This document shows, in pieces, positions 33,834-52,023 of a stretch of DNA of 64,000 bases (position 1 is the first letter of the stretch; each line of letters starts with the position of its first letter). Source of the DNA: Bacteroidota bacterium. GTDB lineage: Bacteria; Bacteroidota; Ignavibacteria; UBA10030; UBA6906. The notes under the pieces were generated by a model. It had not been told where the DNA came from, did no database searches, and worked only from the letters and a program-made list of their open reading frames with translations. The stretch covers positions 1,489 through 65,488 of the forward strand of contig DASRUE010000196.1 in assembly GCA_035687895.1 (NCBI GenBank), in the 5' to 3' direction. Both the position numbers and the translations under genes were made by a program.

Positions 33834-33845
33834 GGTTCTCTACTA

Positions 33846-34082: not shown

Positions 34083-34086
34083 ATCG

Positions 34087-34530
34087 CTATGCTCTCTTCT
34101 TACATTTGGAACAGATTCCAAAAATCTGAAGTGTTGAACTTTGTGCCTTGAAACTCTTCTCGTCGCACACATCATCTTGAATCCGCTCGAGTTTTTCGTT
34201 TACGAATTCGATAATGTCTCCACAGTCCAGGCAAATAAGATGGTGGTGATGCGGACGCCCGAAGGCTTTCTCGTATCGAGATGTATTTTCGGCAAACCTG
34301 TACTTGGAGACGAGGCCGCATTCCTGAAGCACCTCCAGAGTATTGTATACAGTTGCCTTAGAGACTTTGATGCCATTCGTGATTAACCGGTAGTAGAGTC
34401 CCTCGACATCAAAGTGTCCCTGGCTTTCCAATACTGCGTCTAAGATCGCAAAACGCTCGGGAGTCGAGCGCTGCTTTCCGCTTGCCTTCAGATGGGTTGT
34501 GAGTATCTCGTGCGCTGCGTGAACGTCCAT
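34087..34530 (-). CDS. fur: Fur family transcriptional regulator
   Basis: It has a winged-helix N-terminus, HHHHLICLDCG, and C-terminal CxxC metal sites. Confidence 0.85.
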   Translation of the reverse strand: MDVHAAHEILTTHLKASGKQRSTPERFAILDAVLESQGHFDVEGLYYRLITNGIKVSKATVYNTLEVLQECGLVSKYRFAENTSRYEKAFGRPHHHHLICLDCGDIIEFVNEKLERIQDDVCDEKSFKAQSSTLQIFGICSKCKKRA

Positions 34531-34560
34531 GGCTCCTCTTATTTAGAATTAGTCTAAATA

Positions 34561-34589
34561 AAAATAAGCACAAATATCCAAGTTGTCAA
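34561..34589 (-). promoter_or_regulatory. Promoter for fur-feo operon: TTGACA-N17-TATTTT on the minus strand, AT-rich, possible Fur operator overlap
   Basis: The reverse complement reads cTTGACAacttggatatttgtgctTATTTT. It lies about 25 nt upstream of the fur ATG in a divergent AT-rich intergenic region. Confidence 0.45.
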
Positions 34590-34662
34590 GAGAGAAGTTA
34601 GAAATAGATTTGACATGTATCGAAAACAGTGTGAAAAATCTCTGGAAATTTGCAGATTTTGC

Positions 34663-34690
34663 TTGCTTATTTCGTCCGGATTAGTATATT
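34663..34690 (+). promoter_or_regulatory. Candidate promoter TTGCTT-N16-TATATT for the DHS-like gene
   Basis: It has a perfect -10. It is divergent from the fur promoter. Confidence 0.35.
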
Positions 34691-34736
34691 TTCACCGGGC
34701 AAACGGTTAGTCCCCTTCTTCTAATTCTTAGTATGA

Positions 34737-35837
34737 ATGAAGTCTCCTAAAGCCAACCTTCTCAGCGGCAGACGAATAATCAGGGCTCCTATTCCCAAGA
34801 ACATCCCAATTGTGAAATTGGTTGATGAGTACTTCCAGGCCTACAATGGAGGCAGACTGCGAGAAGCTTGCCAGTTGTTCTCTACAAAGATGCTCGCGAG
34901 AGATGTAACCGTGGGTATGAGTATTACTGGTGCACTTACGCCGGCCGGGCTCGGATCGTGCATAGTTCCTCTGATAAGAGCGGGATTTGTGGATTGGATC
35001 GTTAGCACGGGGGCCAACCTTTACCACGACACTCACTTCGCAATTGGCCACACCCTTCACCGCGGCTCGCCATTTCTCGATGATCGAGTCCTGCGCAAGG
35101 AAGGAGTGATTAGGATATATGACATTCTCTTCGATTATGAAGTTCTGCTGAGCACGGATGAGTTCTTCAGGACTGTTCTTCGCAACGAAGAGTTCCAGAA
35201 AGAAATGGGGACGGCCGAGCTACACTATAAGCTTGGTAAATATGTCCTTGAGCGCGAGAGAGTATTACGTATCAGGCATAGCAGTGTGCTAGCAACCGCG
35301 TACCGATGCGGTGTGCCGGTTTACACCCCTTCGCCGGGTGATAGCTCTATAGGAATGAATATAGCTGAGATTGAGTTATCTGGATATAGGACGCGTCTAG
35401 ATGTTCTTCTTGATGTCAACGAAACAGCAGCCATTGTGCTAGACGCAAAGAAAAGGGGTGGGAGGAGTGGAGTGTTGATCTTCGGTGGTGGGTCACCAAA
35501 GAATTTCATTTTACAGACTGAACCTCAGATCCAAGAAGTGCTGAAGATCAACGAGAAAGGGCACGATTTCTTCTTGCAGGTTACCGATGCCCGACCCGAT
35601 ACGGGTGGTTTGTCAGGTGCGACCCCGTCAGAAGCAGTCAGTTGGGGAAAAGTGGATCCCGACAAGCTTCCTGATACCGTTGTGGCCTACCTTGATGCAA
35701 CGGTAGCCATGCCAATTTTGACCTCGTATGCCTTGGCAAGACGTAAACCTCGCCAACTTAAACGCCTGTACGATCGTCGAGCAGAGTCGTTGGAACGATT
35801 GAAACGTGAATACAAAAGAGTGAGCAAGAGTTCTTAG
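34737..35837 (+). CDS. Deoxyhypusine synthase-like protein
   Basis: The sequence is [13 protein letters not shown]...[16 protein letters not shown]...[12 protein letters not shown], a DHS-family Rossmann core. It is 366 aa. Confidence 0.7.
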
Positions 35838-37120: not shown

Positions 37121-37322
37121 TTTGTGCGCAGTTCCCAGCTTTTCGAGAAAGCTATGTATCCACATGGTCAAATCTGCCGTTAAGGTAAAACTTACATGGC
37201 ATAAGCTCTCGAAATCCCCCAGTTTAACTCGTTTTAGGCCCTCCTTTCTGGCTTAACCTTTGCGCAAATCATGACTTACAAATAAGAACCTCTCGAATGT
37301 CCACATTGTCAGAAGGTTGACT

Positions 37323-37703
37323 ATGAGAATCTTGGTTGTTGACGACAATAAGGGTTTCCTCAACGTCATGGGTGACTTGCTGCGCGACTATGGTTACGAG
37401 GTTTTTCTTGCGGAGGATGGAAAGCAGGCCCGGGAGTTCTTGGAAGGAGAGAAGGTCGACGTTATCGTATCCGATGTTTTTATGCCGACGCTTGACGGGA
37501 CTCGGTTCCACAGTTACGTTCGTGAGTTTACGGACTTTCAGGACATTCCTTTCATCTTCATCTCAGGGTACGATGACGAGCACACACGAAATGTAGTAGT
37601 TGATTCCAAGATCGATTTCTTCATCAGCAAAACAGCGCCGGTGGAGACGCTCGTATCTCTGATTGAAAGCCTGAAACCAACAAAGCAGCTAAAGTCCGTC
37701 TGA
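37323..37703 (+). CDS. Single-domain response regulator (PilH/PilG-like position at head of pilus cluster)
   Basis: It has ILVVDDNKGF and VIVSDVFMPTLDG. AGAAGG sits 6 nt upstream of the ATG. The tabled start is a TTG 6 nt upstream. Confidence 0.8.
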   Translation: MRILVVDDNKGFLNVMGDLLRDYGYEVFLAEDGKQAREFLEGEKVDVIVSDVFMPTLDGTRFHSYVREFTDFQDIPFIFISGYDDEHTRNVVVDSKIDFFISKTAPVETLVSLIESLKPTKQLKSV

Positions 37704-37755: not shown

Positions 37756-39627
37756 GTGTCAATTTCGGGAAATGTACATCCCCTACAACGGCCCCTCGAG
37801 GATGAGGAAGCATCATCCGTGTCGTCACACCCAGCGAACGACACCATGTCGAACGGTGCTGGACAACCATTCATGTCCTCCTTCATGGAGCATTTGGTCC
37901 GATCCAAGATCGTGACTGAGGAAGTTGCACTTCGGGCGTCGGCATGGAAACACGAACAGAATGGACGCGGGAAGAAAAGCCTCGTGGAAATCCTTGCGGA
38001 TGAGTTCAGCGTTCCACGGGACATCCTATATAATGAAGTCGCTCACTTCTACTCCTTTCGCATGATCGACCTTAATGATCGGAATGCAAGGAGGCTACCT
38101 CCGTCGACGGTCAACAAACTTCTTGCTGGGCTTCCGGAGTCAATCTACCAACTGGCACTCAAGCACAAAGTTCTTCCATACGAAGTTCCCGAAAACCAGC
38201 CGGACAAAATGTTGGTCGTTACCCCCAACCCTTCTGATCGCGAAGTGTATGAAGTAGCACGTTCGTTCACCTACAAGAAGTTCGAAATATGTTACATGAA
38301 GGAGCGAGACTGGGCGGAGTTCTGGCGCCAGGTCACCTTGGATAAGCAGCAGGTTGTTAGTGGGCTCGGCGGCTCAGACTCGGTTTTTGAGGAAGAGGAT
38401 GCAGAGTTGGACTTGGTGCTGGATAAAGAGATCAACAGAAGCCAGTTGATTGCGCTGGTGGAAAATCTCTTCGCCGATGCTGTGCGTGTCGGTGCCAGTG
38501 ACATTCACATCATGCCTAAAGGAGCACGCAAGACGGTAGTCTCATTCAGACTTGACGGAAGGTTGACTGAGTGGTACACGATTGAGGATGCTCGCGCAGA
38601 AGCCGTAGTTGCGGTTGTTAAAGGCAGGGGGTTGAACCTCGACAGGTTTGAGCGTATGGCCGCCCAGGATGGCTCGGCGCAGAAGGTTATCGATAATCAA
38701 GTGGTCAGGTTTCGCATTTCGATTATTCCAGTTGTCTCGCGTGAGCTGTCCGGCAAGTTCGAATCCGTCGTGATCCGCATTTTGAAGGACGCGGACGCAT
38801 CCGTTACCCTGGAGGCAATCGGTTTCGATCCCTACTCATTGAAGGTTTTCGGTGAGGCGATCGCGAAACCGCATGGCATGGTAATTCTAACGGGACCAAC
38901 GGGGAGCGGAAAAAGCACGACACTCGTTGCTGCGCTTCGGTCCGTGATGCATCCATCACGTAATACTATTACAGTCGAAGACCCAGTGGAATATCTGCTT
39001 GAAGGAGCGCGGCAGGTAAAGCTGAACCATAAACTCAATTTCGATGATGCCTTGCGCGCGATCCTTCGTCACGATCCTGACATTGTGATGGTGGGAGAGA
39101 TCCGTGATCGAATTACCGCAGATCTTGCCATCAAGCTTGCAAATACCGGCCATCTGACATTTTCGACCCTGCACACGAATGACGCGCCAAGCGCTGTCTC
39201 GCGGCTTTTCAAAATAGGTGTGGAACCCTTTCTTCTTGCTCAGGCACTAAATATTGTAGTTGCGCAACGTCTTGTCCGAAAACTCTGTGAAAAGTGCAAA
39301 CAGCCTGTTTCACAGGTGAGCGATATGCTTCTCGCAAAGACAGGATTTACGCAGGAAGAGGCAGAGACAACAACGTTTTACCGGGCAGTGGGATGTATCA
39401 ATTGCGTTGGTGGGTTCAAGGGCCGTACTGCGATTCACGAGTCGCTGTATGTGACGCAAGAAGTCCGAGACATTATCCTTGAGAGTGGAGACAAGATCGA
39501 CGTTAACGCCATCCGTGATACGGCTGTGGCCCACGGCATGCAGACGCTTCGACAGTCTGGTATTGAATTGGTGAAGAGTGGCATCACTACAATGGATGAG
39601 ATCATCAGTGGCACCACAAACGACTGA
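37756..39627 (+). CDS. pilB: GspE/PilB-family secretion ATPase (type IV pilus extension ATPase-like), copy 1
   Basis: It has the Walker A LTGPTGSGKSTTL, the Asp and His boxes, and a tetracysteine CxxC...CxxC. Its N-terminal GSPII_E_N region carries MshEN-like repeats. It uses a GTG start, with AAGGAG 9 nt upstream. Confidence 0.85.
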   Translation: MSISGNVHPLQRPLEDEEASSVSSHPANDTMSNGAGQPFMSSFMEHLVRSKIVTEEVALRASAWKHEQNGRGKKSLVEILADEFSVPRDILYNEVAHFYSFRMIDLNDRNARRLPPSTVNKLLAGLPESIYQLALKHKVLPYEVPENQPDKMLVVTPNPSDREVYEVARSFTYKKFEICYMKERDWAEFWRQVTLDKQQVVSGLGGSDSVFEEEDAELDLVLDKEINRSQLIALVENLFADAVRVGASDIHIMPKGARKTVVSFRLDGRLTEWYTIEDARAEAVVAVVKGRGLNLDRFERMAAQDGSAQKVIDNQVVRFRISIIPVVSRELSGKFESVVIRILKDADASVTLEAIGFDPYSLKVFGEAIAKPHGMVILTGPTGSGKSTTLVAALRSVMHPSRNTITVEDPVEYLLEGARQVKLNHKLNFDDALRAILRHDPDIVMVGEIRDRITADLAIKLANTGHLTFSTLHTNDAPSAVSRLFKIGVEPFLLAQALNIVVAQRLVRKLCEKCKQPVSQVSDMLLAKTGFTQEEAETTTFYRAVGCINCVGGFKGRTAIHESLYVTQEVRDIILESGDKIDVNAIRDTAVAHGMQTLRQSGIELVKSGITTMDEIISGTTND

Positions 39628-39850
39628 TTCGTTAAAGTTCGTCATTACAATAGGTATCGGAAATTCTGACTCTCGTCCAGTTACTTTTACCACAAGCATC
39701 CAAAACCCACACCAGAAAGCCTGTTTTGACGGTCGCTCAATGAATTCTAATTCTGGCATGGCGCTTGGGACATTCTGTTGCACAAACACAAATGAATACA
39801 AACAACTAACTCCCACATTTAATCACATTCACCAATAAAGGAGCTCCACC

Positions 39851-40243
39851 ATGGGACAGCAGCAACTTTTGTTAATCATCCTTGGCGTCATCGTTGTCGG
39901 TATCGCAGTGGCGGTCGGCATCACGATGTTCCAGGATAACGCAGTGTCGGCGAACCGCGATGCGGTCACGAACGATCTCGTGAACCTCGCCTCACGTGCG
40001 CAACAGTACTATCGTCGTCCGACGGCGTTGGGTGGCGGCCAGGGTGACTTTGACGGTCTGACCCTCGTAAAGCTGACCTCCAAGTCAATCAATGCAAACG
40101 GTTCATACGGGCTGACCTCGGCAGCAGGCCAGACAGCTGTTATCGAAGGATATGGCACGGAGAATGGCAATGACGGTTCGACGGTGATTCATCTTACGAT
40201 GAACGTGCTTTCGGATAGCACGTACATTGTAGAAGTTAACTAA
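39851..40243 (+). CDS. Pilin-like protein with a non-canonical N-terminus (MGQQQLLLIILGVIVVGIAVAVG...), candidate major subunit
   Basis: It has a strong SD, AAAGGAG, and an N-terminal hydrophobic helix at residues 5-27. A terminator hairpin follows it. It lacks the G-F-T-L-I-E prepilin motif. Confidence 0.55.
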   Translation: MGQQQLLLIILGVIVVGIAVAVGITMFQDNAVSANRDAVTNDLVNLASRAQQYYRRPTALGGGQGDFDGLTLVKLTSKSINANGSYGLTSAAGQTAVIEGYGTENGNDGSTVIHLTMNVLSDSTYIVEVN

Positions 40244-40252
40244 CGCATGCTT

Positions 40253-40292
40253 GAACGGGCTTCCCTTGTCGGGGAGCCCGTTCACTATTTTC
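40253..40292 (+). terminator. Intrinsic terminator/attenuator between tandem pilin-like paralogs
   Basis: A GAACGGGCTTCCC-TTGTC-GGGGAGCCCGTTC stem-loop is followed by ACTATTTTCAC. Confidence 0.5.
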
Positions 40293-40308
40293 ACAAAACG
40301 GTAAAGCC

Positions 40309-40719
40309 ATGGGCACTCAACAGTTATTGCTAATCGTCGTCGGCGTCGTCCTCGTTGGAATCATGATTGCAGTGGGACTCTTCATGTTTCGGGACCAGGC
40401 GGCTGCCACGAACAGAGATGCGCTCACAAACGATCTGACACATCTTGCTTCGGCGGCACAGCAGCACTATCGGCGCCCAACGGTTTTTGGTGGTGGACAG
40501 AGGAGATTTACAGGTCTCACGTTGAGCAAGCTGACGACAAAACCCATCAACGCTAATGGGACGTACTCACTGTCTCCGGATCCAGTAACAGGAACACCGG
40601 CCTCGGTTCAGATTACCGGGATTGGGCGTGAAACTGGAATTGATGGGACTAATAAGGTCAAAGTTGTTGTGCTGGTATTCCCCGACAGCGTCTATGTAGA
40701 CGACTCCAACGGCAACTAG
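40309..40719 (+). CDS. Pilin-like protein, tandem paralog (MGTQQLLLIVVGVVLVGIMIAVG...)
   Basis: It shares the first-gene N-terminus and downstream motifs (NRDA.TNDL..LAS.AQQ.YRRPT..GGGQ..F.GLTL.KLT.K.INANG.Y.L). Confidence 0.55.
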   Translation: MGTQQLLLIVVGVVLVGIMIAVGLFMFRDQAAATNRDALTNDLTHLASAAQQHYRRPTVFGGGQRRFTGLTLSKLTTKPINANGTYSLSPDPVTGTPASVQITGIGRETGIDGTNKVKVVVLVFPDSVYVDDSNGN

Positions 40720-40796: not shown

Positions 40797-40840
40797 GGGG
40801 GGAGTCGTAATAGGGGGTACCTCCCCTTGTTGGTTCGCTT
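40797..40840 (+). terminator. Candidate terminator hairpin
   Basis: A GGGGGGAG...CTCCCC stem is followed by TTGTTGGTT. Confidence 0.3.
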
Positions 40841-40960
40841 GTTTTGCTAGGTGGGGGATCTAGTAAGACGTCGGGCGATTCCAACGGGGGAGCTTACCCT
40901 TTACGTGTTCAATAGAGAGAGTGTGATACAGCGTACAATTTAACGTAAGAGGAATGCATC

Positions 40961-42340
40961 ATGGCAGAGTTCAGAATCGAAGGTGTCACTGCTGGTGGAA
41001 AACCGGTCCAAGGTATCCTGGAAGCGGACTCCACCCGGTCGGCCAAGCAGAAAGCAGCAGTCATGGCGCAGCAGCGAAAATTCAAGCTGTTGCATGTTGT
41101 TCCTCGCTCCACGTGGGTGTACAAAGTACAGCGCGGGACGGAGAAACCTGTAATTGGTGAGCAGAAAGCCTTCACCAAAGGAGAGGTTCAGGAAGCCCTT
41201 CAGAAAATGGGCTACCGTGTAATCCGAATTCAGAAGCGGCTCATCAACTTCAAAGCAAGACCGCCCGCTACTGAAATCGTGACCTTCGTGCGGGTGAGTG
41301 CGGACCTTATACGGCAGAAGCTTCCGTTCAATGAGATCATGCAGTTGCTGGTGAACGACATTCAGAACAGGACCCTGCGCGAGGCGATCAAGGATATCAA
41401 CGCCGAACTGAAACAGGGCAAAGACAGCGAGCGTGCGTTCATCAAGCACGAAGCAGTTCTCGGTCGGTTCACCGCCCACATGCTCGGCTTGGCCTCGAAG
41501 AGTGGTAACATGGCCGAAATCTATGACAGCACGGCGAAGTTTTTGGAGCGCCAGTCGGAATTTAAAAAGAACCTCAAGAGCGCGCTGATCATGCCCATTG
41601 TGACTCTCTTCGTTCTGTTCGGTGCGGTGGTTTACTATGTCGGATACATCTTTCCGGCGACTGCCAATTTGTTCCGGAAGTTTAATATTGAACTACCGCC
41701 AATGACCCGGGCAACGCTCGCGCTTAGCGATTTTCTGGTGGAGAACATTGTGATAATTCTCATCGGGACAATCATCCCCACCATTCTCGCAGTTCGTTTC
41801 TTCACGACGGAAAAGGGGCGTTTCATTCTTGATCGTTACATCTGGAAGGTCCCCGCAATGGGACAACTCCTCCATAAAATGAGTATCGAGATCTTCTGCC
41901 GGGTATTCTATGCCCTGTACAGTGGGGCGGGCGAGAATATCGAGGTCATCCGTATGGCATCTGAGGCATGCGGCAACAAGTACATGGAGCACCAAATCAA
42001 GACCATCGCACTTCCCCTGATGATTCAAAAAGGTGCGGGTATCACCGAAGCGTTCGAAGCGACGGGTGTCTTTACGAAAACTGCGATTTCGCGATTCCAC
42101 TCGGGAGCCGAGACAGGGACAGTAAAGAACACGGCCCTTCAGCTGGCGGAGTACTACGAGAAGGAAACGTCGTACAAAATGAGGAATGCGATTGACTATA
42201 TTCAGTTGATGATTTCGATGATCATCATGGTTGTGTTGACGGCCCTGACGATTGTGTCGTCCGAGACGGCGACCATTCGGCCCAAGAACCCGGCGCTGGG
42301 TCACGCCACAGTGCAGCACGCTGAAAAGTCCTTGACGTAA
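40961..42340 (+). CDS. pilC: Type IV pilus/T2SS platform protein (two T2SSF domains)
   Basis: It has duplicated GspF-like domains and three TM segments. It is 459 aa, with SD AAGAGGAA. Confidence 0.85.
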   Translation: MAEFRIEGVTAGGKPVQGILEADSTRSAKQKAAVMAQQRKFKLLHVVPRSTWVYKVQRGTEKPVIGEQKAFTKGEVQEALQKMGYRVIRIQKRLINFKARPPATEIVTFVRVSADLIRQKLPFNEIMQLLVNDIQNRTLREAIKDINAELKQGKDSERAFIKHEAVLGRFTAHMLGLASKSGNMAEIYDSTAKFLERQSEFKKNLKSALIMPIVTLFVLFGAVVYYVGYIFPATANLFRKFNIELPPMTRATLALSDFLVENIVIILIGTIIPTILAVRFFTTEKGRFILDRYIWKVPAMGQLLHKMSIEIFCRVFYALYSGAGENIEVIRMASEACGNKYMEHQIKTIALPLMIQKGAGITEAFEATGVFTKTAISRFHSGAETGTVKNTALQLAEYYEKETSYKMRNAIDYIQLMISMIIMVVLTALTIVSSETATIRPKNPALGHATVQHAEKSLT

Positions 42341-42376: not shown

Positions 42377-44164
42377 ATGGCACAGATTGACATTACAGAT
42401 AAGATAGGGTTCGCACTCCTCAAAAAAGGAATCATTGACTACGAGACGCTGGAGAAGTCGCTCAAGGTCAAAGACTCCGAAGGGAAGAAGAACCGGCGGA
42501 ATCTAGGGCAGATCCTCGTCCACGATTTCAATGCCGACCACGACGCGGTGTTCAGAGAAGTTGCCGATCTCTATGCGTTCCGGGAGATCTACCTTGCTGA
42601 TGAAAACATCGAGAAACAACGGATTGATTTCATTAGGAAGTTTGTTGATGCTCTTTCCGAGAGCGCACGCGACATGATGTTGCAGGCCAAGATTCTCCCA
42701 CTCAAGTTCGACGAGAAACAACCGGATAAGTTGGTGGTAATTGCCGCCGACCCGACCGATCGACGCATCCCGCTGGTTGCCCGCAATTTCGGCGTGAAGA
42801 AGTACGAGGTTGTGTACACCCGCCTCAAGGAACTGCAGAACCTCATGGAACAGGTTGTTCCACCGGAGAATGAGTTCCTCCGACTTCTTGAGGATTCACA
42901 GGTCGGCATCGAGGTAAAGGAAGATGAAAGCGCCGTTGATGAAGAGGCGCTCGAAGCGGAGATCGGAAAAAGCGCGTTGGTTAACCTCGTGGAAGGCTCG
43001 TTGATTGAAGCCGTGCGCCAGGGGGTGAGTGATATCCACATTATCGCAAAGGAAGGGAACCGAACCGAGTTTTGGTTTCGAGTGGATGGGAATCTGAAGC
43101 TGTGGCATGTGCAAGAGAACACGATGCCCGAGGCAGTTGCCGCAGTTGTTAAAGACCGTTCCAAGAATATAGACCGTTTCGAACGCGAAATGTCTCAGGA
43201 CGGTTTCATCCAGCGGCTTATCGACGACCACATGATCCGCTTCCGCGTCTCCATCATGCCGATCGTGGGTGTCGAATTCAGACACAAGTTTGAAAGCATC
43301 GTCATCCGTGTGCTGGACGATCGAAAGGTTATCACTGACCTGGATAAGCTGGGCTTGCAGGGCCCAGCGAAAGATTTCTTCTACAAAGCCATTGAGAAAC
43401 CTCAGGGGATCGTCATCCTGACCGGGCCGACTGGAAGCGGTAAGAGCACAACTCTGGTTGCTGCCTTGCACCAGGTGATTGACCCGACGGTGAATGTCCT
43501 CACAGTCGAAGACCCGGTCGAATATATTATACGCGGTGCACGTCAGCTGAAAATTGGCCCAAAAATGAACTTCGATCTGGCCATCCGCGGTATTCTCCGG
43601 CATGACCCGGACATTGTGCTCGTCGGCGAAATGCGTGACAAAGCAACGTCAGAAATCGCCATCAAGCTCGCTAACACAGGCCACCTCACGTTCTCCACGC
43701 TTCACACAAACGATGCACCGAGCGCTGTTGCTAGACTGTACAAAATGGGGATCGAGCCATTTCTGATCGCGTATGCCATTAATATAATTGTGGCCCAGCG
43801 TCTTGTCCGGACGTTGTGCAAAGTCTGCAGACGCCTCATCCCCAAGGAGGAAATTGACCGGGACGTATACCTGAAATTTGGTTTCGCGGAAGAAGACCTT
43901 GAAACACGGACAATGTACGAAGCGGTTGGTTGCGATAAGTGTAATGGAGGATACAAAGGACGTGCTGCAATCCACGAGGCGCTGTATTTCACCCGTGAGA
44001 TTCGCGGGTTGATCGTCAAGGCCGGTGGCGACATTGATGAGGAACAGATTCGCAACCAGGCGATGAAAGATGGGATGTGGACCCTTCGCAGGGCGGGTAT
44101 TGAGAGGATCAAGGATGGTATAACGACGCTCGAAGAAATTGCATCAGCAACAACGGATGATTAA
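42377..44164 (+). CDS. GspE/PilB-family secretion ATPase, copy 2
   Basis: It has the Walker A LTGPTGSGKSTTL and a tetracysteine. Its N-terminus carries MshEN-like motifs (IGFALLKKGIIDYETLEKSL; RNLGQILV...). Confidence 0.85.
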   Translation: MAQIDITDKIGFALLKKGIIDYETLEKSLKVKDSEGKKNRRNLGQILVHDFNADHDAVFREVADLYAFREIYLADENIEKQRIDFIRKFVDALSESARDMMLQAKILPLKFDEKQPDKLVVIAADPTDRRIPLVARNFGVKKYEVVYTRLKELQNLMEQVVPPENEFLRLLEDSQVGIEVKEDESAVDEEALEAEIGKSALVNLVEGSLIEAVRQGVSDIHIIAKEGNRTEFWFRVDGNLKLWHVQENTMPEAVAAVVKDRSKNIDRFEREMSQDGFIQRLIDDHMIRFRVSIMPIVGVEFRHKFESIVIRVLDDRKVITDLDKLGLQGPAKDFFYKAIEKPQGIVILTGPTGSGKSTTLVAALHQVIDPTVNVLTVEDPVEYIIRGARQLKIGPKMNFDLAIRGILRHDPDIVLVGEMRDKATSEIAIKLANTGHLTFSTLHTNDAPSAVARLYKMGIEPFLIAYAINIIVAQRLVRTLCKVCRRLIPKEEIDRDVYLKFGFAEEDLETRTMYEAVGCDKCNGGYKGRAAIHEALYFTREIRGLIVKAGGDIDEEQIRNQAMKDGMWTLRRAGIERIKDGITTLEEIASATTDD

Positions 44165-44215: not shown

Positions 44216-44782
44216 ATGAACCTCGGTCAAAGCATGCTGGTCATTGGTGCAATATTGCTTCTGGGGATTCTTACCCTTAACGCCAACAGGACAGTGATGG
44301 AGACAAATGATGTAACAAATTCAAGCGAGTTCGGAATTGCCGCGGTGTCGCTGGCGACGTCTCTGGTTGAGGAGGCAATGGGGAAGATGTTCGATGAAGT
44401 TGTGGCTGACACGGTGCCTCCAACGATGGCTCTGTCGATTCTCTCGACTACCCTGCAGAAGGAATCAGGCGAGCGGTATCGCGGCGGCACAAACGACTTT
44501 GACGATATTGATGACTACAATAACCTGTTTGTAGTCTATACAAGCCCGAATGACATGAGCGCGGTTGCCGGTGCGGATACGATTCTCGTTGTTCCTGGGT
44601 TGAGAGCCAGATACTATGTGAGAGCAAGAGTCAACTACGTCAACAGTACAGCTCTTGATGACACCACTTCTGCGCGAACGTGGCACAAGAAGATCCGAGT
44701 GGAAGTCACGAGTCCCCGGATATTACCGATCGGGCAGGCACAGGATACACTCGTGTATCCGGCCGTAATGAGTTATTGGTGA
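44216..44782 (+). CDS. Pilin-like/minor-pilin candidate (N-terminal TM helix then L.N.NR motif)
   Basis: The N-terminus is MNLGQSMLVIGAILLLGILTLNANRT. It has no prepilin Gly-Phe/Glu5 motif. Confidence 0.4.
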   Translation: MNLGQSMLVIGAILLLGILTLNANRTVMETNDVTNSSEFGIAAVSLATSLVEEAMGKMFDEVVADTVPPTMALSILSTTLQKESGERYRGGTNDFDDIDDYNNLFVVYTSPNDMSAVAGADTILVVPGLRARYYVRARVNYVNSTALDDTTSARTWHKKIRVEVTSPRILPIGQAQDTLVYPAVMSYW

Positions 44783-44813: not shown

Positions 44814-45437
44814 ATGAGTGTAATTCTTGATTTAATCTGGTCGACGTTGATCGCAGCCTTCGTCATCCTATTGGGGTTGCGCCTGAACGCGAGTATTGCG
44901 GGGAGTGCAGATGCTTCAAAGGCCAGTCTCAACGTCCAGGAATCTTTGGTTGACATCGTTCAAACGATCGAGTACGATTTCAGGAAAATCGCATACCGAA
45001 TTGCTGATCCTTCGGCCGCAATTATCGTAGCTGACTCGAGTCGGTTGACCTTCTTGTCGGACATTGACAACAACGGCACCATTGATACGGTTTCGTGGTA
45101 TGCGGGACCGAAACTCACGTCGATGGCAAACCCGAACATCCGCGGCCTCTTCAGATCAGTGAGTGGAGAAGGGGCGGTCGCAGCGCCAGGGTTGGGTGTG
45201 ACAGAGTTTCATCTCAAGTACCTGGATCAGGATGGAGTCGAGATTTCGTCGTCGTACCCGCTACCAATAGCCGACCTTCGACGGATCTGGATCATAGAGA
45301 CGACGATGATGATTGAGAGTCCATACAAGGTGCAAGATCAACTGAATCCTGAAATGAGTTATGCAGATATGGGATACGCTGCTGCCTTTTGGAGACAAAC
45401 GCGGCTTGCATCGCGCAATATCCGGCGGCACGGCTAG
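44814..45437 (+). CDS. Pilin-like/minor-pilin candidate (PilW/GspJ-like region SDIDNNGTIDTVSWY)
   Basis: The N-terminus is MSVILDLIWSTLIAAFVILLGLRLNAS, with SD GGAAGGG. Confidence 0.45.
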   Translation: MSVILDLIWSTLIAAFVILLGLRLNASIAGSADASKASLNVQESLVDIVQTIEYDFRKIAYRIADPSAAIIVADSSRLTFLSDIDNNGTIDTVSWYAGPKLTSMANPNIRGLFRSVSGEGAVAAPGLGVTEFHLKYLDQDGVEISSSYPLPIADLRRIWIIETTMMIESPYKVQDQLNPEMSYADMGYAAAFWRQTRLASRNIRRHG

Positions 45438-45488: not shown

Positions 45489-46820
45489 ATGGGAAAAGCA
45501 AGTATCGTCTATGTGATCGGGTTGACTCTTGTTCTGGGTATCGCACTGTTCAACATCAACAGATCCAGCACGGACTCGATGGATACATATACCGAGTACT
45601 ATGGACGAACGATGGCGCACAACATCGCATCGGCAGGAGCGAACATTGCAACCAGTGCGCTACTGGTTCCTCCAGTGGCAATTGTCTCCGGCACCGATTC
45701 GTTCGCAGGGGGGACATACACCGTTCGGGTAGACAGCTTGAATTCAAACGGAGATAGTGTAGTGGTGGTGTCCACATCAAAGATTGATCTCTACGACAAC
45801 ATTGCTGAAAACCAAATCATCCGCGATACCATCGTGGCGAAACTCAGGCACCGACGGTTTGCGGAGTATGCTTATTTCTCCCAATCGGAGACGAACGGTT
45901 ACCTTGCTCCTGGGAGCACTGCGGCTCCATCAGGTGTCAATATGTGGAAAATTACAGGTGATTCACTTTTTGGACGAGCTCACACAAACGGTCGATGGAA
46001 TCTCTCAGGGAGACCGTATTTTGAGGATCGAGTAACGGCTCAGTTCGCAGCAAACCTTGCGGCAGGAGCAAATCCTATTTATAACAAGGGGTATCAGTGG
46101 CAAGTATATCTTAATCGTCCTGCAAGCAACTTGACCAATCTTGAGGCACGCGCAAACGCTGGCGGAGCCTTATTGACGAATAACGATGTTGCACTTACTT
46201 TTTTCCCTAATGGGAATGTGAATGTCCGGATTCCACCGACGACTGGCGGAACGCGCAACGATACAATTCCTATCTCGACCCTTACAAGTACGGGCGTTGT
46301 GGCCGTGAAAAACGGAGACGTGCGCGTCAAGGGGACCTACCAAGGTCAGTTGACTGTCGTGGCCCTCAAGGGAACAACTGCAGGTAATACCAAAGGGAAC
46401 ATCTGGATCGATGGAAATATTGTTGCGGCAACGAACCCGAACGGCAACATGTCTTCACCTGATATGCTCGGTCTGGTTGCCCAAAGAATGGCATATGTGA
46501 CAACCCGGGATCCAGCCACGGGGCTTTGGATCCCGCGTACATCAGCATCGGTTCTGAATATTCAGGCTGCGATCTATACGCACGAAGGGACGTTTGCCGC
46601 GCAAGAGTACAACAACACAGGTCTCGGGCTCTGCGGGAGAATCAACCAGTTCGGGGCTCTGGCGATGGCTGCATCCACTTCGACCGGTCTTATGAGCGGC
46701 GGTGTGATCTCTAATGGGTTTTTAAAGACAATTCGGCATGATCCACGGTATGATGAACAAGCGCCTCCTGGCTTTCCAGCGTCCGACAGCTACGTGCTTG
46801 TTTCGTGGTGGGAAAAATAG
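45489..46820 (+). CDS. Large pilin-like/pilus-tip candidate protein (443 aa, N-terminal TM helix)
   Basis: The N-terminus is MGKASIVYVIGLTLVLGIALFNINRS. It is Gly/Asn/Thr-rich and predicted to be beta-rich. Confidence 0.4.
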   Translation: MGKASIVYVIGLTLVLGIALFNINRSSTDSMDTYTEYYGRTMAHNIASAGANIATSALLVPPVAIVSGTDSFAGGTYTVRVDSLNSNGDSVVVVSTSKIDLYDNIAENQIIRDTIVAKLRHRRFAEYAYFSQSETNGYLAPGSTAAPSGVNMWKITGDSLFGRAHTNGRWNLSGRPYFEDRVTAQFAANLAAGANPIYNKGYQWQVYLNRPASNLTNLEARANAGGALLTNNDVALTFFPNGNVNVRIPPTTGGTRNDTIPISTLTSTGVVAVKNGDVRVKGTYQGQLTVVALKGTTAGNTKGNIWIDGNIVAATNPNGNMSSPDMLGLVAQRMAYVTTRDPATGLWIPRTSASVLNIQAAIYTHEGTFAAQEYNNTGLGLCGRINQFGALAMAASTSTGLMSGGVISNGFLKTIRHDPRYDEQAPPGFPASDSYVLVSWWEK

Positions 46821-46981: not shown

Positions 46982-48214
46982 ATGATAGCAACAGCAGTAA
47001 AAACATTGCAGGATATCGCAGCATCCATCCCGGATACAGCCCCAGGCATGGAACGGCAGATGCTAATTGGGGATTTGGTCTCGAAACAATCTCCCGCCGA
47101 GCGTACTGCCCTACGGAAGCTCATGGACAGCTACCTGACGCGGATGAGCAAAATCAACGCATCAGATATAGATATGGGCGGTTATGGATGTGGCGGTCAC
47201 ATCTGGTATCGCGTGTATGGTGACAAGAAGGTCGATGCTGCGATTGGGAAATTCACACATGATGAGTTTAACGTTCTCATTCAGAGCGTCTTGATTGAGC
47301 GGCAGCGCCTTTTCCTGTATGAAAACCGAAATCTTGATTTCTCATACAGTATCGTTGAAGACGACAAGATGTTCAGGTTTCGCGCGGACGCGTACTTCGA
47401 CCTCGATCAACTGGCGCTCAACATGCGCGCTATTAACGCGACGGTTCGTCCGTACAAGAATCTGGAACTCAATCCGAATGTAACTAAAGCGCTCAGTCTC
47501 TCCTATACGCAGCAAGGGCTCACGCTTATCACTGGCATCACGGGTTCGGGGAAAAGCGCTACACTCGACAGTATCATCGACGCAAACAACCATACCGTAG
47601 ATGCGCATGTTGTGATCATTGCATCCCCGGTGGAGTATGTTCATAAACCGGATCGTTGCATTATCCGCCATCGAGAAGTGGGACGAGATGTTCTGTCGTT
47701 CAAGGAAGGGGCCATTCAGGCATTGCGACAAGACCCCGATATCATTGTAATCGGAGAAATGCGCGATCCGGATACAATTATGACGGCTCTCGAAATCACA
47801 GATAGTGGTCATAAAGTGTTCTCGACGCTCCACACCGCCTCGGCCGTGGAAACCATAGATCGTGTCATTGGCGAAGTTCCACCGGTCGAGCAAGAACGTG
47901 TAAGGATGCGTCTTGCGGACACGTTGAGTTGTGTGATGTCACAGAAACTGGTTCCGAGCTTGGACGGGAAGCTGGTTCTCGCAAAAGAAGTTATGGTAAT
48001 GATCCCGTCCGTACGGGCAGCGATTAAGAACAATAATACGGGTGAAGTCTACCAGATGATGGCCGAATCAGGTGATCTGGGAATGATCACCCTTGAGCAG
48101 GACCTGAAAAGATTGTACATGCAGAAGAGGATATCGCTGGAGAATGCTATAGTCACGGCAAACAACAAGCGACGCTTCCAGCAGATCATGAACTTAACTC
48201 CTGTGGGAGACTGA
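46982..48214 (+). CDS. pilT: PilT/PilU-family retraction ATPase with an ~55-aa N-terminal extension
   Basis: It has the Walker A ITGITGSGKSATL, a KINASDIDMGG (ASDLH-like) region, and the His-box region STLHTASAVETIDR. Confidence 0.8.
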   Translation: MIATAVKTLQDIAASIPDTAPGMERQMLIGDLVSKQSPAERTALRKLMDSYLTRMSKINASDIDMGGYGCGGHIWYRVYGDKKVDAAIGKFTHDEFNVLIQSVLIERQRLFLYENRNLDFSYSIVEDDKMFRFRADAYFDLDQLALNMRAINATVRPYKNLELNPNVTKALSLSYTQQGLTLITGITGSGKSATLDSIIDANNHTVDAHVVIIASPVEYVHKPDRCIIRHREVGRDVLSFKEGAIQALRQDPDIIVIGEMRDPDTIMTALEITDSGHKVFSTLHTASAVETIDRVIGEVPPVEQERVRMRLADTLSCVMSQKLVPSLDGKLVLAKEVMVMIPSVRAAIKNNNTGEVYQMMAESGDLGMITLEQDLKRLYMQKRISLENAIVTANNKRRFQQIMNLTPVGD

Positions 48215-48272: not shown

Positions 48273-49826
48273 ATGGCTTCTATGAAAGGGCCGAACAAGA
48301 CAGTCCTTGGAATCTTTGTCGACGGTCTGGATGTTAAGCTCGCTCATCTGAGCGTAAAAGGAAAACGGGTCACCGTACATGAGTTGCGGTCTGGGACCCT
48401 TGTAGCGAAGCTGGAAGAGCGCAAGGCAGTTGAAGTTGGCAGCATGTCCGACACCGCCGATGCGTTCAGCTTACCCGCTGGTATTTCTGCGGATTCCGGC
48501 ATTGAAGCCCAATCGGAGGACAACAATGCCGTCTTGCTGGGCCTTCTTGCCCAGTATCCTTCCAACAAGTACTCACTGACCTATAGCATCGCCGAACCAG
48601 CGATCTACTATCACCTCCTGGAAAGTGATTTTGGCTTGAAAGGGAAGAAGCTCAAGGAACGAATCCTTGCAGAGCTTAGAAACATTCGCGCCTTTCAGCC
48701 TGCAGCTGATGCTGTAGATGCCATTACCACGGATGAGGGGAACCTCCTCTGTGTGGTCCGCGAAGATGGGCTTAGCCTCATCAATTCTCTTGAGAACATC
48801 AAGGGGTTCATGGGTAACAGGTTGCCCCGGATCCCGGCGATCGACAGCGCTGACATTTCGTTGATGAACCTTGTCAGGCTGAACTATGACCTTCAGCCCC
48901 AGGAAGTTTCCGTTATCATTTATGTGGGTGTTGAGTTTACCCGCTTGATCTTCATGAGGGGGAGTCAGTTCTATCAGTTTGCCCCGATCCTTGGAGAAGG
49001 GTACGATTCGCCGAACCTCCAAAACACGGTCTACAGCAGGCTATTGCTGGAACAGGATAATCTAGCCATCCCTCGCATCAGTAAGATCATACTTGCAGGC
49101 GAATGTCGTCGCATCAACTTCAAAGAGTTCCTCACCCAGCAACTCCCTGATCAAGAAGTCGACTACCTGTTGACGCCTCAGCTTGATTCCAGTCCGTTGC
49201 CTCCTGAACAACAGGAGTCAATCTCGGAGTTTGCCGTGCCTATTGCCGCGGCATGGAAGGTGTTGGATCCCACGAACCCGAGAATTTACAATATTAACCT
49301 CTTACCCGCGATTGTGCGGGAAGGTCAGCGTGTCTTCAAACTGGCATGGCACGGATATCTCCTCCTCCTCCTGCTCTTCTTTTCGACCCTGTTCTTCACA
49401 TGGTCGATTGCGCGAAAGCAGCGCGATATCGTCGAGCAGTCTGACGTCCTCGAACGAAAGAAAGTCCAGCTTGCGGAGAATGAGGCAGTGCAGAATTCCA
49501 TCATTGACCTCCAGCAACAAATAGCCCGCTACCAGACTTCCCTGGCATTGTATGACACCCTTGTGCCAGGTAGTGAACGATGGAGCAAGGTCTTCACCCA
49601 GTTTAGCCACGGTGTGGAGGACTTGAATTCGATCTGGTTGACGGACTTCTCAACTGGTGATGCCGGCGTGATGACTGTAAACGGGTTTACGGTGTACCGG
49701 ACCCGCATCCCGCGGCTCGCAACATTGTTTGATAACACGCTCCTGAAGGAAGTAAATGTGCAGGCGATTCGTGAGCAGGCCGTCTATCGGTATAAGATTG
49801 AAGTACCTGCCCCGTCCGGGCAGTAG
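48273..49826 (+). CDS. PilM-PilN fusion protein (actin-like PilM domain, then TM helix and coiled coil)
   Basis: The first ~340 aa resemble PilM (VLGIFVDGLDVKLAHL...). A TM helix LLLLLLFFSTLFFTWSI follows at ~350, then a Q/E-rich coiled coil. Confidence 0.6.
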   Translation: MASMKGPNKTVLGIFVDGLDVKLAHLSVKGKRVTVHELRSGTLVAKLEERKAVEVGSMSDTADAFSLPAGISADSGIEAQSEDNNAVLLGLLAQYPSNKYSLTYSIAEPAIYYHLLESDFGLKGKKLKERILAELRNIRAFQPAADAVDAITTDEGNLLCVVREDGLSLINSLENIKGFMGNRLPRIPAIDSADISLMNLVRLNYDLQPQEVSVIIYVGVEFTRLIFMRGSQFYQFAPILGEGYDSPNLQNTVYSRLLLEQDNLAIPRISKIILAGECRRINFKEFLTQQLPDQEVDYLLTPQLDSSPLPPEQQESISEFAVPIAAAWKVLDPTNPRIYNINLLPAIVREGQRVFKLAWHGYLLLLLLFFSTLFFTWSIARKQRDIVEQSDVLERKKVQLAENEAVQNSIIDLQQQIARYQTSLALYDTLVPGSERWSKVFTQFSHGVEDLNSIWLTDFSTGDAGVMTVNGFTVYRTRIPRLATLFDNTLLKEVNVQAIREQAVYRYKIEVPAPSGQ

Positions 49827-49859
49827 CACTATCGACCTGATGATCAAAGGAGAGTAGCC

Positions 49860-50756
49860 TTGTCATACAAAATACGAAATAGCGTCGTGCTGGGCGTCCT
49901 GCTCTTCCTCGTCCTTGGAGTAGGAGTGTATGTCCGCGGCTTCAATCTTCCGGGGAAACTCAACAAGATTGAGACAGAGATCCGCACCATTGAGGACCAG
50001 CTGCAGAACACGCCAAACTTGGTGGCGGAGTTCAACGATCTGAGCGCCAACCTTGCGGACACAAAGAAGCGCTGGGAAAACCGGAACAAGGATATCCCAC
50101 CGGTGGATGTTACGTCTCAGACCTATGCATATTTCAGCCGATTGATTGACTTGAGTGGCGATGTGAAACTTGACCTTCTGTACACTGGAGTAGAGCAAAA
50201 AGGGAACTACGGGTTCAATGTGTACAATTTAAGGGGCGAGGCGCCGTTTGAAAACTTTTACAGGTTCATCTGGTACCTTGAAAACGGTCGTAAACTCTAC
50301 AAGATCAAAAAAATGAATGTGAAGGGGCTTGAGATAGCTCCCAAAGAGGATGAGCCGGGCGGCATTTTGGTCACCTTTGAGATGGTCGTCCATGCATATT
50401 TCTCGTCGGTCGCAGAGCTTGCGAGCGCTCCCGGTGAACGAACCATAACGCCAAATTATCTGATGATTGATCCTTTCAATCCGGTGATTTCGAGCGACAT
50501 TCCGGCCAACCTCCGGAAGCTGATAGAGATTGAGCGTTCCGATTTGAAAGCAGTCATTCCAGGAAAGGCGTTTGTCCTTGATCAGACAAACGCGTTCAGA
50601 ACACTGACGGAAGGGGATGAAGTTTACCTTGGCTATGTGACCAAGATCGACCCCGAACTAGGACGGATCGAGTGCACGCTCAACAAGGGCGGCATCATTG
50701 AGAAGGTGGAATTGAAGATACGCTACGGCATTCAACAAAACGTTGTGCAAAAATAG
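49860..50756 (+). CDS. PilO/PilN-family inner-membrane pilus alignment protein
   Basis: It uses a TTG start, with AAAGGAGAG 5 nt upstream. An N-terminal TM helix is followed by a coiled coil and then a ferredoxin-like periplasmic region. Confidence 0.5.
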   Translation: MSYKIRNSVVLGVLLFLVLGVGVYVRGFNLPGKLNKIETEIRTIEDQLQNTPNLVAEFNDLSANLADTKKRWENRNKDIPPVDVTSQTYAYFSRLIDLSGDVKLDLLYTGVEQKGNYGFNVYNLRGEAPFENFYRFIWYLENGRKLYKIKKMNVKGLEIAPKEDEPGGILVTFEMVVHAYFSSVAELASAPGERTITPNYLMIDPFNPVISSDIPANLRKLIEIERSDLKAVIPGKAFVLDQTNAFRTLTEGDEVYLGYVTKIDPELGRIECTLNKGGIIEKVELKIRYGIQQNVVQK

Positions 50757-50769
50757 GATCGAGGACAGC

Positions 50770-52023
50770 ATGAAAACACGCACTATTGTCTGCATACTTA
50801 CTCTGCTGGCAGCCAGCATGGCACCGGCCCTTGGTCAGACAAACCCCGAGGAGCGACGCTCGTTCCGGGAGTACACATCTCCTGAAGAACTCGTCTCAAT
50901 TGCTCCGACTGCCACGATGGACAAGGCGCTTGCAGCCATCAGCGAGGTAAGTCGGAAGTTCGTCGGGAAGATCATTATTGATACGGAGCGGCGGACGATG
51001 CCGGTCAACGTCGACATCCAGGGCGTGCAGTGGCGCGACGCCCTTGAGATGATCTGTCGCAAAAATGAGATCTGGTACTCGGAGTATGAAAACTATATCC
51101 AGCTCACATCGTCCGGCAGCGCAACGACTGCCGATGGTGCGCGGCAGGGAGCCGCCGCCGCCGGGAGCCCCGATATCCAGAAGGAATTTGCCACCTTCAG
51201 GAGCCGGGAAATCAAAATCTCGGGAGTTTTTTTGGAAGTGAATCTGAGCAAACTCGATGAAGTCGGATTGAACTGGACTTTCATGAAGAGTACATCAGAC
51301 TATTCGATCAATTCCTCACTCGCCGCGGGTGATAGGGTTTCTAGTGAGATCTTCAAAACGGAAATCACACCGAAGGTGAGCTTCGCCAACATTAACATCC
51401 TCGCAAAGATGTTCTCGAACTACAACCTTGGTGAGATTCTTTCAAGTCCGCAAATCAACGTGCGTTCGGGGGAAGATGGAAGGATACAGGTAGGGCAGGA
51501 CTTCTCCATTAAAGAGCGTGACTTTGCCGGTAACCTGATCGATAAGTTCTACAGTGCTGGAACGATCATCAAGGTGAAGCCGCAGGTGATCAACGAGCAA
51601 GGGGTGAACTTCGTGCACATGGTGGTTGATGTTGAGCGCAGCTCGGTGGTGCCCGGGTCCGTTAGCACAATCATCAACAAGACGAAAGCAAGTACCAACG
51701 TCCTTCTGCTCGACGGTGAAGAAACAATCATTGGTGGTTTGTACACCACAGAGGTCACCACGGTGCGTTCAGGTATTCCATTTCTGAAGGACCTGCCTTG
51801 GTATGTCTTTGGTCTCCGGTATCTGTTTGGGTATAACAGAGAGGAAGAGACGAAGAAGGAGCTTATCATCCTTCTGAAAGCTGAGCTCGTCCCGACATTG
51901 CAGGAACGGATTACGCAGAAGACCAGGCCGGGTGAACTTTACGAGCAGTGGCGGGCGGATCGTGCGAAGGAAGAGCAAAACCTCAAAGGCGAGAGCGCCG
52001 CAGACGAAAGTGAAGAAAAGTAA
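50770..52023 (+). CDS. pilQ: Secretin (type II/III secretion system protein family), short form
   Basis: It has a signal peptide. The C-terminal secretin domain is NVLLLDGEETIIGGL...SGIPFLKDLPWYVFGLRYLFG. The start was set to the ATG (MKTRTIV) in the tabled frame. Confidence 0.75.
   Translation: MKTRTIVCILTLLAASMAPALGQTNPEERRSFREYTSPEELVSIAPTATMDKALAAISEVSRKFVGKIIIDTERRTMPVNVDIQGVQWRDALEMICRKNEIWYSEYENYIQLTSSGSATTADGARQGAAAAGSPDIQKEFATFRSREIKISGVFLEVNLSKLDEVGLNWTFMKSTSDYSINSSLAAGDRVSSEIFKTEITPKVSFANINILAKMFSNYNLGEILSSPQINVRSGEDGRIQVGQDFSIKERDFAGNLIDKFYSAGTIIKVKPQVINEQGVNFVHMVVDVERSSVVPGSVSTIINKTKASTNVLLLDGEETIIGGLYTTEVTTVRSGIPFLKDLPWYVFGLRYLFGYNREEETKKELIILLKAELVPTLQERITQKTRPGELYEQWRADRAKEEQNLKGESAADESEEK

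Follow-up and report, generated by a model that had tools for sequence, protein, structure and literature searches.

Predicted type IV pilins with a non-canonical N-terminus encoded by a tandem gene pair in an Ignavibacteria genome

The tandem gene pair and its family

The DNA analysed here, referred to as the window, is a stretch of 64,000 nucleotides from a Bacteroidota bacterium of the class Ignavibacteria (assembly GCA_035687895.1, contig DASRUE010000196.1, positions 1,489 to 65,488). It carries two tandem genes, pilA1 and pilA2, which most likely encode the major and an accessory subunit of a pilus resembling the type IVa pili (T4aP). Their assignment as pilins draws on a predicted fold and on conserved synteny with pilB, pilC, pilT and pilQ. 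The coordinates of both genes and of the surrounding features are given in Table 1. The original prediction described tandem paralogs with shared N-termini, and this holds: both open reading frames (ORFs) are exact, independent gene callers give the same products of 130 and 136 amino acids in public copies of the contig, and the two proteins share 54% identity from end to end (BLASTP E 4e-39). PilA1 begins with MGQQQLLLIILGV... and PilA2 with MGTQQLLLIVVGV..., the shared start being MG(Q/T)QQLLL; longer N-terminal stretches read MGQQQLLLIILGVIVVGIAVAVGITMF for PilA1 and MGTQQLLLIVVGVVLVGIMIAVGLFMF for PilA2. An in-frame TAA is located 4 non-start codons 5' of the ATG at 39851, and an in-frame TGA 18 non-start codons 5' of the ATG at 40309, so that a longer N-terminus is impossible for either protein.

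Table 1. Features of the pilus locus, with positions in the window
Feature	Position	Strand	Remarks
Receiver-only response regulator, head of the cluster	37317..37703	+	Pfam Response_reg E 6e-22; kept together with PilB-like ATPase 1 in the clade
PilB-like assembly ATPase 1	37756..39627	+	Pfam T2SSE E 3e-101; best NCBIfam match TIGR02538 (PilB) E 6e-126, below the curated cut-off
Sigma-54-type -24/-12 element	39754..39768	+	TGGCATGGCGCTTGG; about 95 nt 5' of pilA1
Shine-Dalgarno sequence AAAGGAG	39837..39843	+	7 nt 5' of the pilA1 ATG
pilA1, predicted major type IV pilin	39851..40243	+	130 aa; non-canonical N-terminus MGQQQLLL
Intrinsic-terminator-like hairpin with T-containing tail	40252..40294	+	Stem-loop 40252-40284; tail CTATTTTCAC
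pilA2, paralogous pilin	40309..40719	+	136 aa; MGTQQLLL; probably low-expressed alternative or accessory subunit
Second short GC hairpin	40812..40827	+	AGGGGGTACCTCCCCT, then TGTTGG; similar GGGGG...CCCC TTGTTGG in loci L001, L004 and L010
Conserved hairpin, pilA2-pilC intergenic	40843..40867	+	Invariant loop GGGGGA at 40853-40858
PilC/GspF platform protein	40961..42340	+	Pfam T2SSF E 3.5e-29; NCBIfam GspF and PilC E 1e-40, below cut-offs
PilB-like assembly ATPase 2	42377..44164	+	Pfam T2SSE E 1.7e-97; TIGR02538 E 1.5e-124
Minor pilin-like protein	44216..44782	+	188 aa; N-terminus M-x-x-G-Q
GspJ/PilW-like minor pilin	44814..45437	+	207 aa; N-terminus MSVILD; invariant Asp6
Large minor pilin-like protein	45489..46820	+	443 aa; conserved start M-(x)-G-[KR] and hydrophobic segment; faint DUF4900 match
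PilT-like retraction ATPase	46982..48214	+	410 aa; Pfam T2SSE E 1e-33; kept in the cluster
Two conserved genes	48273..50756	+	517 aa at 48273-49826, 298 aa at 49860-50756; no Pfam match; syntenic in most loci
Secretin, PilQ-like	50743..52023	+	Pfam Secretin E 7e-28
Lipoprotein-like protein	52030-53517		CarboxypepD_reg and Big_1/Invasin_D3 domains; 3' of the secretin gene in many loci

Neither protein has the N-terminus expected of a type IV pilin. The n-region MGQQQ is uncharged and is followed by a hydrophobic stretch of about 22 residues (L6-F27). Asp and Glu are absent from residues 1-27/28 of both proteins, and Lys and Arg are absent ahead of and inside the hydrophobic segment, the first basic residue being Arg28 of PilA2, just past the segment. 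Both proteins also lack Cys. Instead of the short basic leader with Gly(-1) of a class III signal, only M-G precedes the polar/hydrophobic segment, and the position equivalent to Glu+5 is occupied by Leu8, Leu7 or Gln5, depending on the register. The absence of a canonical basic leader and of Glu5, as originally claimed, can be read directly from the sequence. A Sec-type signal or anchor was rejected on account of the uncharged n-region and of an h-region of about 22 residues that, in the structural model, continues as one helix to residue 55. A lipoprotein signal was likewise rejected, the proteins having no Cys, an uncharged n-region and a 22-residue h-region.

The MG-type N-terminus is not confined to a single genome, since 118 of 120 close homologs begin with MGQQQLLLIILG. 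M1, G2, Q4, Q5, L6, L7 and L8 are invariant in an alignment of 37 sequences, and MG[QSNT]QQ[LI]L is the start of most of 150 representatives at 50% identity. The family comprises 3,454 clusters at 90% identity; clustered at 50% it has 2,066 representatives with E <= 1e-3 (1,331 with E <= 1e-10), and it spans Ignavibacteriota, Kryptoniota, Calditrichota, KSB1 and Zixibacteria. Its members are annotated at source as 'hypothetical protein' or, at the Joint Genome Institute (JGI), as 'Tfp pilus assembly protein PilE'. The majority fraction is 0.95 over the first 63 residues and 0.63 over the remainder. At the level of sequence, such a near-invariant N-terminal part followed by a variable C-terminal half is the classic pattern of a major pilin.

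In the clade of the window pilA1 and pilA2 form separate, position-conserved orthologous groups, with first-gene orthologs 61-76% identical to PilA1 and second-gene orthologs 45-61% identical to PilA2. The pilA2 orthologs, whose products start with MG[STN]QQ, keep their position in related loci. The duplication that the original prediction proposed is therefore old, and the pair has been kept in related genomes. A homolog in Melioribacter roseus, MROS_0599, is annotated 'hypothetical protein' and is 87% identical to the pilin of a Melioribacter metagenome-assembled genome (MAG); PilC, PilB and PilT adjoin the MROS_0599-identical sequence.

Searches against known families returned little for the two pilins. 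No Pfam family matched, the best hit being a sub-threshold ComP_DUS (E 0.05), and NCBIfam gave nothing relevant. Neither N_methyl PF07963 nor TIGR02532 matched either pilin at E<=1, and there was no match to T2SSG PF08334 (GspG). A profile search against PDB sequences gave nothing significant, with Geobacter PilA-N as the best hit (E 0.24). The predicted structure, on the other hand, is a full lollipop pilin fold with a continuous 53-residue helix; in the model this long helix, with its hydrophobic N-terminal half, packs against a 4-stranded antiparallel sheet. Foldseek against the PDB gave no match that was significant by E-value, and the top two matches were pilins. The alignment to pilin families that had been suggested as a check thus gave a predicted pilin fold and no significant sequence match in Pfam, NCBIfam or the PDB. 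The homologs did not turn out to be non-pilus membrane proteins, nor is the predicted fold a globular non-pilin one.

The head domain (NRDA..NDL.NLA..AQ.YYRRP..GGG...) is also found in other architectures. In P0121, P0122, P0137 and P0181 it stands in 2-5 tandem copies after Sec or lipoprotein signals, and in P0165, P0182 and P0190 it is fused behind N-termini consisting of a zinc ribbon and two transmembrane segments. The head is therefore an autonomous module that Pfam does not recognise and that also serves proteins other than pilins.

The pilus gene cluster and its expression signals

The gene order in the window is response regulator, PilB-like 1, pilA1, pilA2, PilC, PilB-like 2, three small proteins with an N-terminal helix, PilT, two further genes, secretin and a Big_1 lipoprotein. 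At least 513 relatives turned up when species-representative genomes were scanned, and the best 78 loci were taken for gene context. These represent Ignavibacteriota, Melioribacteraceae, the cultured Stygiobacter electus, Candidatus Kryptonium/Kryptoniota, Calditrichota, KSB1 and Zixibacteria. About 65 of the 78 species-level loci have 1-3 tandem pilin genes directly 5' of PilC-PilB-(3 minor pilins)-PilT-PilMN-PilO-PilQ, and homologous pairs beside pilB/pilC were thereby found in relatives, where the original prediction had proposed to look for them. Pilins encoded together with PilB, PilC, minor pilins and a secretin are consequently seen in the window, in these loci and at the MROS_0599 locus. 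Judging by position, the 517-aa and 298-aa proteins may have PilM/N-like and PilO/P-like roles, respectively.

Several observations concern the surroundings of the cluster. In the clade of the window a second PilB-like ATPase and the receiver-only regulator lie 5' of the pilin pair; in most other loci the only ATPase is the one 3' of PilC. The lipoprotein-like protein downstream of the secretin could be a pilotin or an adhesin-like partner. In one lineage a glycosyltransferase gene of family GT87, possibly a pilin glycosylation gene, is directly upstream of and divergent to the pilin pair (locus L001, 8202-9557; also L002 and L003). A block of FeoB, FUR and a deoxyhypusine synthase-like gene lies 5' of the pilus cluster in the window (29943-35837), and its synteny extends to distant relatives, as in L001 (2518-6905). 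Finally, the ORF at 60868-62187 matches the first domain of the type IX secretion system plug protein (PF17116, E 5e-11). A type IX secretion system is thus probably present in the organism as well, which would fit an origin in the Fibrobacterota-Chlorobiota-Bacteroidota (FCB) group.

Upstream of pilA1, TGGCA-N7-TG is the sole invariant block in 13 of 13 aligned orthologous regions that are otherwise unconserved. The element of the window reads TGGCAT-N5-TTGG, compared with the sigma-54 consensus TGGCAC-N5-TTGCW (GG at -24, GC at -12), and the -12 box varies between TTGA, TTGC and TTGG among loci. A strict sigma-54 pattern missed the element of the window, with its TTGG -12 box, and the alignment recovered it. 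No gene for an enhancer-binding protein was seen in the cluster, where no search was aimed at such proteins or at RpoN, and the adjacent response regulator is receiver-only. The strong Shine-Dalgarno sequence described for pilA1 is present as stated, and AAAGG(A/G)G is found at the same place in about 9 of the 13 orthologous loci.

The hairpin following pilA1 had been described as an attenuator. It has a 14-bp stem with 9 GC pairs, a 5-nt loop and a predicted folding energy of -29.4 kcal/mol compared with a shuffle mean of -16.2 (z -4.56; none of 200 shuffles as good). The stem-loop is followed by a tail with only four consecutive T, and a GC-rich stem-loop and a U-tract, the two parts of a rho-independent terminator, stand at the 3' end of the gene. 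A strong GC hairpin (dG -18 to -33) is located after the first gene in every scored pilA1-to-pilA2 locus. Because its position after that gene is conserved and the sequences are unrelated between species, it is more plausibly a terminator that closes the major pilin gene than an attenuator; as judged from the sequence it would be an intrinsic terminator of pilA1 that is probably leaky. In Ignavibacteriales and Melioribacteraceae the terminator instead follows the last pilin gene, which is the abundant one in M. roseus. pilA2 has neither a promoter motif of its own nor a strong Shine-Dalgarno sequence and is probably reached by read-through of the terminator.

The intergenic region between pilA2 and pilC contains two more hairpins. 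The one with the GGGGGA loop is conserved in 12 loci, and 7 of its 9 predicted pairs have compensatory changes. A conserved ACGGGGGAG motif lies about 33 nt 3' of it, and further G-rich elements are located in 40880-40900. Rfam has no family for the hairpins. The GGGGGA-loop hairpin may be a leader RNA or a GGA-loop site for a protein that controls pilC.

Protein abundance has been published for M. roseus. In a label-free proteome MROS_0599 had an exponentially modified protein abundance index (emPAI) of 1.7-2.2 and was detected in 6 of 6 samples, compared with 0.08-0.17 for PilB, 0-0.07 for PilC, about 0-0.12 for PilT and 0-0.59 for the upstream paralog MROS_0600 (PMC5492636 Table S2). By emPAI, MROS_0599 is about 10 to 25 times as abundant as PilB, and its ratio to PilC and PilT is higher still; far more of it is thus made than of the machinery. 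Such high levels in whole-cell proteomes lend indirect support to polymerisation into an extracellular filament. Taken with the conserved sigma-54-type element, the Shine-Dalgarno sequence and the terminator, the abundance makes it likely that pilA1 encodes a highly expressed major subunit, as was originally suggested.

These data bear on two alternatives to a pilus. The first is that the proteins are bitopic periplasmic or surface proteins anchored in the membrane, for instance binding modules or accessories of the machine, that resemble pilins and never polymerise. The absence of Glu5 and of a recognisable class III signal would fit such proteins, as would the occurrence of the head domain in non-pilin architectures. 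We nevertheless regard this as very improbable, given the full lollipop fold with its continuous helix that is predicted, the extreme conservation of the N-terminal helix across phyla, which is typical of packing in a filament core, the location in the major-pilin slot in front of pilC/pilB with an I/J/K-like minor set alongside, and the abundance relative to PilB, PilC and PilT.

The second alternative is a system resembling type II secretion (T2SS), in which the pseudopilins would form a short periplasmic piston of the kind suggested for the T4aP-related 'T2SS' found in Cytophaga and other Bacteroidetes. The Bacteroidetes system branches within the T4aP, has a very divergent major pilin and has been flagged as a possibly new type (Denise et al. 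2019, PMC6668835). The resemblance of the minor pilins to GspI/J/K also points this way, and so does the PilC protein, which scores slightly higher with the GspF model than with PilC models. Further likenesses to the Cytophaga system are the common superphylum, a T4aP-related ATPase and platform, and divergent pilins. However, the cluster of Cytophaga hutchinsonii (CHU_3191-3201) encodes a GspG-type pseudopilin recognised by PF08334 and an in-cluster Peptidase_A24 (CHU_3197), and PilT is not reported from it (PMC5553014). The cluster described here has a conserved PilT retraction ATPase, no A24 gene and a pilin family that Pfam does not recognise and PF08334 does not match. With a recognisable GspG and an A24 peptidase gene in its cluster, the Cytophaga 'T2SS' is a different system, and identity with it was rejected. 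Furthermore, the hypervariable C-terminal half and the high abundance fit an exposed fibre better than a pseudopilus. We consider a T2SS-like function improbable.

Minor pilins and the maturation of the N-terminus

The three small proteins between PilB-like 2 and PilT help to place the residues of the pilin N-terminus. In the 188-aa protein, for which the gene order suggests a GspI/PilV-like role, M1, G4 and Q5 are invariant in 18 orthologs, and its sequence aligns residue for residue with PilA1 from the first methionine (M1-M1, Q5-Q5). Homologs of the GspJ-like protein start with M-x-x-x-[LMI]-D in 103 of 120 cases, have Ser (80), Ala (20), Thr (6) or Gly (2) as residue 2 and, in 118 of 120, lack a Gly ahead of the helix. 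Each of these four residues at position 2 permits removal of Met1 by methionine aminopeptidase. Excision of Met alone would therefore place the Asp at +5, with no further processing. Having no Gly ahead of its helix, the GspJ-like protein is not a canonical PilD substrate, and the system may thus not use a prepilin peptidase. The 443-aa protein, to which gene order and size suggest a GspK/PilX-like role, begins with M-G-K in the window, and the Gly is kept at position 2 or 3 among its homologs. In none of the four pilin families of the cluster does a basic residue stand ahead of the hydrophobic segment.

Comparisons of the families bear on the register. A weak profile match aligned the Asp of the GspJ-like protein with Glu5 of TTHA1219 (E 2), and hhalign aligned the same Asp with Leu8 of PilA1 (E 0.074). 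The weak alignment with Geobacter PilA-N implies that Leu8 corresponds to Glu5, Gly17 to Gly14 and Phe27 to Phe24. In profile comparisons the families line up by absolute position (M1 to M1, with a shared G17) and not by the Gly. These weak alignments, together with the profiles within the cluster, favour Gln4 as the canonical +1 residue, Leu8 as the equivalent of Glu5 and Gly2 at -2. The two-residue leader of the original prediction, with cleavage after Gly2, must therefore be regarded as an assumption, given where the alignments put Gly2 and given a GspJ-like protein without the Gly.

No candidate for a prepilin peptidase was found near the pilin genes. Pfam detected no Peptidase_A24 among the 35 ORFs of the window, and when the window and 82 related loci, 1.25 Mb altogether, were translated in six frames, no polytopic ORF with GxGDxK came up; the polytopic ORFs that did were UppP, Lgt and unrelated transporters. 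Five further loci have no Peptidase_A24 annotation. In sum, the 64-kb window and 86 related loci, each up to 20 kb long, yielded no A24 gene. The genome paper on M. roseus reported that neither pilA nor pilD could be found and judged the pilus gene set incomplete (PMC3534657), and pili go unmentioned in the genome paper on I. album. In the searchable literature we found no paper that ties Ignavibacteria to a prepilin peptidase, names Stygiobacter or contains the motif MGQQQLL.

A different explanation of the N-terminus is that it is a very short class III signal, cut after the Gly (MG|QQQ, MxxG|Q, M(x)G|K/R) by an A24 peptidase encoded elsewhere in the genome. The mature pilin would then start with Gln, possibly methylated or converted to pyroglutamate. 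Gly(-1) is reportedly the only strict determinant for PilD in canonical systems, and pilD is often unlinked to the pilin genes. Also consistent with such cleavage are the near-invariant Gly2 of the PilA proteins, the invariant Gly4-Gln5 of the 188-aa protein, where the Gly is not at position 2, and the Gly retained at position 2 or 3 of the 443-aa protein. Doubt arises because the GspJ-like protein lacks a Gly ahead of its helix, no family has a basic residue ahead of the Gly, no linked peptidase was found and pilD was reported missing from M. roseus (PMC3534657); the alignment of the families by absolute position likewise speaks against the Gly as a common landmark. Cleavage after Gly therefore seems to us rather unlikely.

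The reading we prefer is that the N-terminus arises by ordinary excision of Met and that no dedicated prepilin peptidase is needed. That maturation involves no such peptidase has, in our estimate, close to an even chance, and what is left beyond this and the cleavage after Gly falls to other modes of processing. The fuller proposal is tentative and somewhat less probable than not: a peptidase-free pilus of essentially leaderless pilins, formed by Met excision or by the loss of 2-3 residues, in which a Gln cluster replaces the salt bridge of Glu5. An N-terminal Gln could cyclise to pyroglutamate.

Several points weigh against the interpretation as a peptidase-free pilus. The search for A24 genes covered the window and the related loci, yet the gene is often found elsewhere, and the 2013 statement on pilD in M. 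roseus may reflect the limits of annotation. A bioanode study reported, from an Ignavibacteriales bin, a pilin of the canonical, Geobacter-like kind (PMC7399161), so that some members may have PilD. The Gly residues, Gly2 in the PilA proteins, Gly4 in the 188-aa protein and that of M-(x)-G-[KR] in the 443-aa protein, are under tighter constraint than the excision of Met would demand and in sequence resemble a Gly(-1) cleavage site. As to the pilin assignment itself, the fold is a predicted one across the whole family, the similarity to known pilins is not significant (PilA-N and ComP_DUS being the closest), and the head domain, with its repeat and fusion architectures, is not exclusively a filament module.

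A proposed lineage-specific type IVa-like pilus

In the mechanism that we propose, the locus would encode a T4aP-like pilus that is a lineage-specific variant in Ignavibacteriota and neighbouring phyla of the FCB group. PilA1 would be the major pilin, made in large excess over the machinery by means of the sigma-54-type promoter, the strong Shine-Dalgarno sequence and the intrinsic terminator. PilA2, an old paralog, would serve as a minor or alternative subunit whose gene is reached mainly by read-through of the terminator. The subunits would be inserted into the inner membrane by the hydrophobic helix of residues 6-27, with the head outside, and PilB and PilC would polymerise them through the secretin, primed by the three co-encoded minor pilins. 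PilT would retract the fibre. The polar Gln4/Gln5 cluster may take the place of the contact between Glu5 and the N-terminal amine, and the GspJ-like minor pilin alone would keep an acidic residue, its Asp, at the position equivalent to Glu5. What the data show is the predicted fold, the synteny, the conservation of the N-terminus, the conserved terminator and promoter element, and the published abundance of the M. roseus ortholog; filament formation, the roles of the paralogs, read-through and the mode of processing are what we infer.

To our knowledge, every characterised type IV pilin has a basic cleavable leader, in contrast to the pilins described here. Compared with the major pilins of type IVa (PilA of P. 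aeruginosa, PilE of Neisseria, PilA4 of Thermus thermophilus), a basic leader is missing and only M-G is present, Phe1 and Glu5 are absent, with Leu or Gln at the candidate positions, and PF07963 and TIGR02532 do not match. There is no Cys and hence no disulfide-bonded D-region, and a prepilin peptidase gene was not found in the 86 loci. We know of no member of the canonical GspJ/PilW, GspI/PilV and GspK/PilX sets other than GspK/PilX that lacks Glu5. In the minor set of this cluster only the J-like protein retains an acidic residue, it begins with M-S/A/T-x-x-L-D, and a canonical leader is absent from all of them.

Archaeal type IV pilins and archaellins have very short leaders of a few residues and commonly lack Glu5. 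Their leaders have a basic residue before the Gly/Ala cleavage site and depend on the A24 peptidases PibD/FlaK. The pilins described here share the very short leader and the absence of Glu5 with them; their machinery differs in being of the bacterial T4aP type, with PilT and a secretin. No description of this N-terminal design was found in the searchable literature. What is known is the fold, the machinery and the gene organisation; what is new is an N-terminal design without basic leader, Phe1 and Glu5 that is missed by every pilin model and occurs in several phyla.

By the class III signal, the A24 peptidase and Glu5, type IV pilins are not only defined but also searched for (PilFind, PF07963, TXSScan). 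This family, which numbers about 2,000 clusters at 50% identity, slips past such criteria, and in consequence too few pili are called in Ignavibacteriota, Kryptoniota, Calditrichota and their relatives. Pilus genes were reported missing from these genomes because the pilins have neither a basic leader nor Glu5. The pilus gene set of M. roseus was called incomplete, yet MROS_0599 is among the more abundant proteins of its proteome. The question is directly testable, since M. roseus, Stygiobacter electus and Rosettibacter firmus are hosts in culture and proteome data are available. If the pilus proves to be independent of a peptidase, it would be a natural experiment on the need for the leader, N-methylation and Glu5 in the extraction of subunits from the membrane and in the packing of the filament. 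The type IV filament superfamily would then have dispensed, across several phyla of the FCB group, with two features that are considered universal in it.

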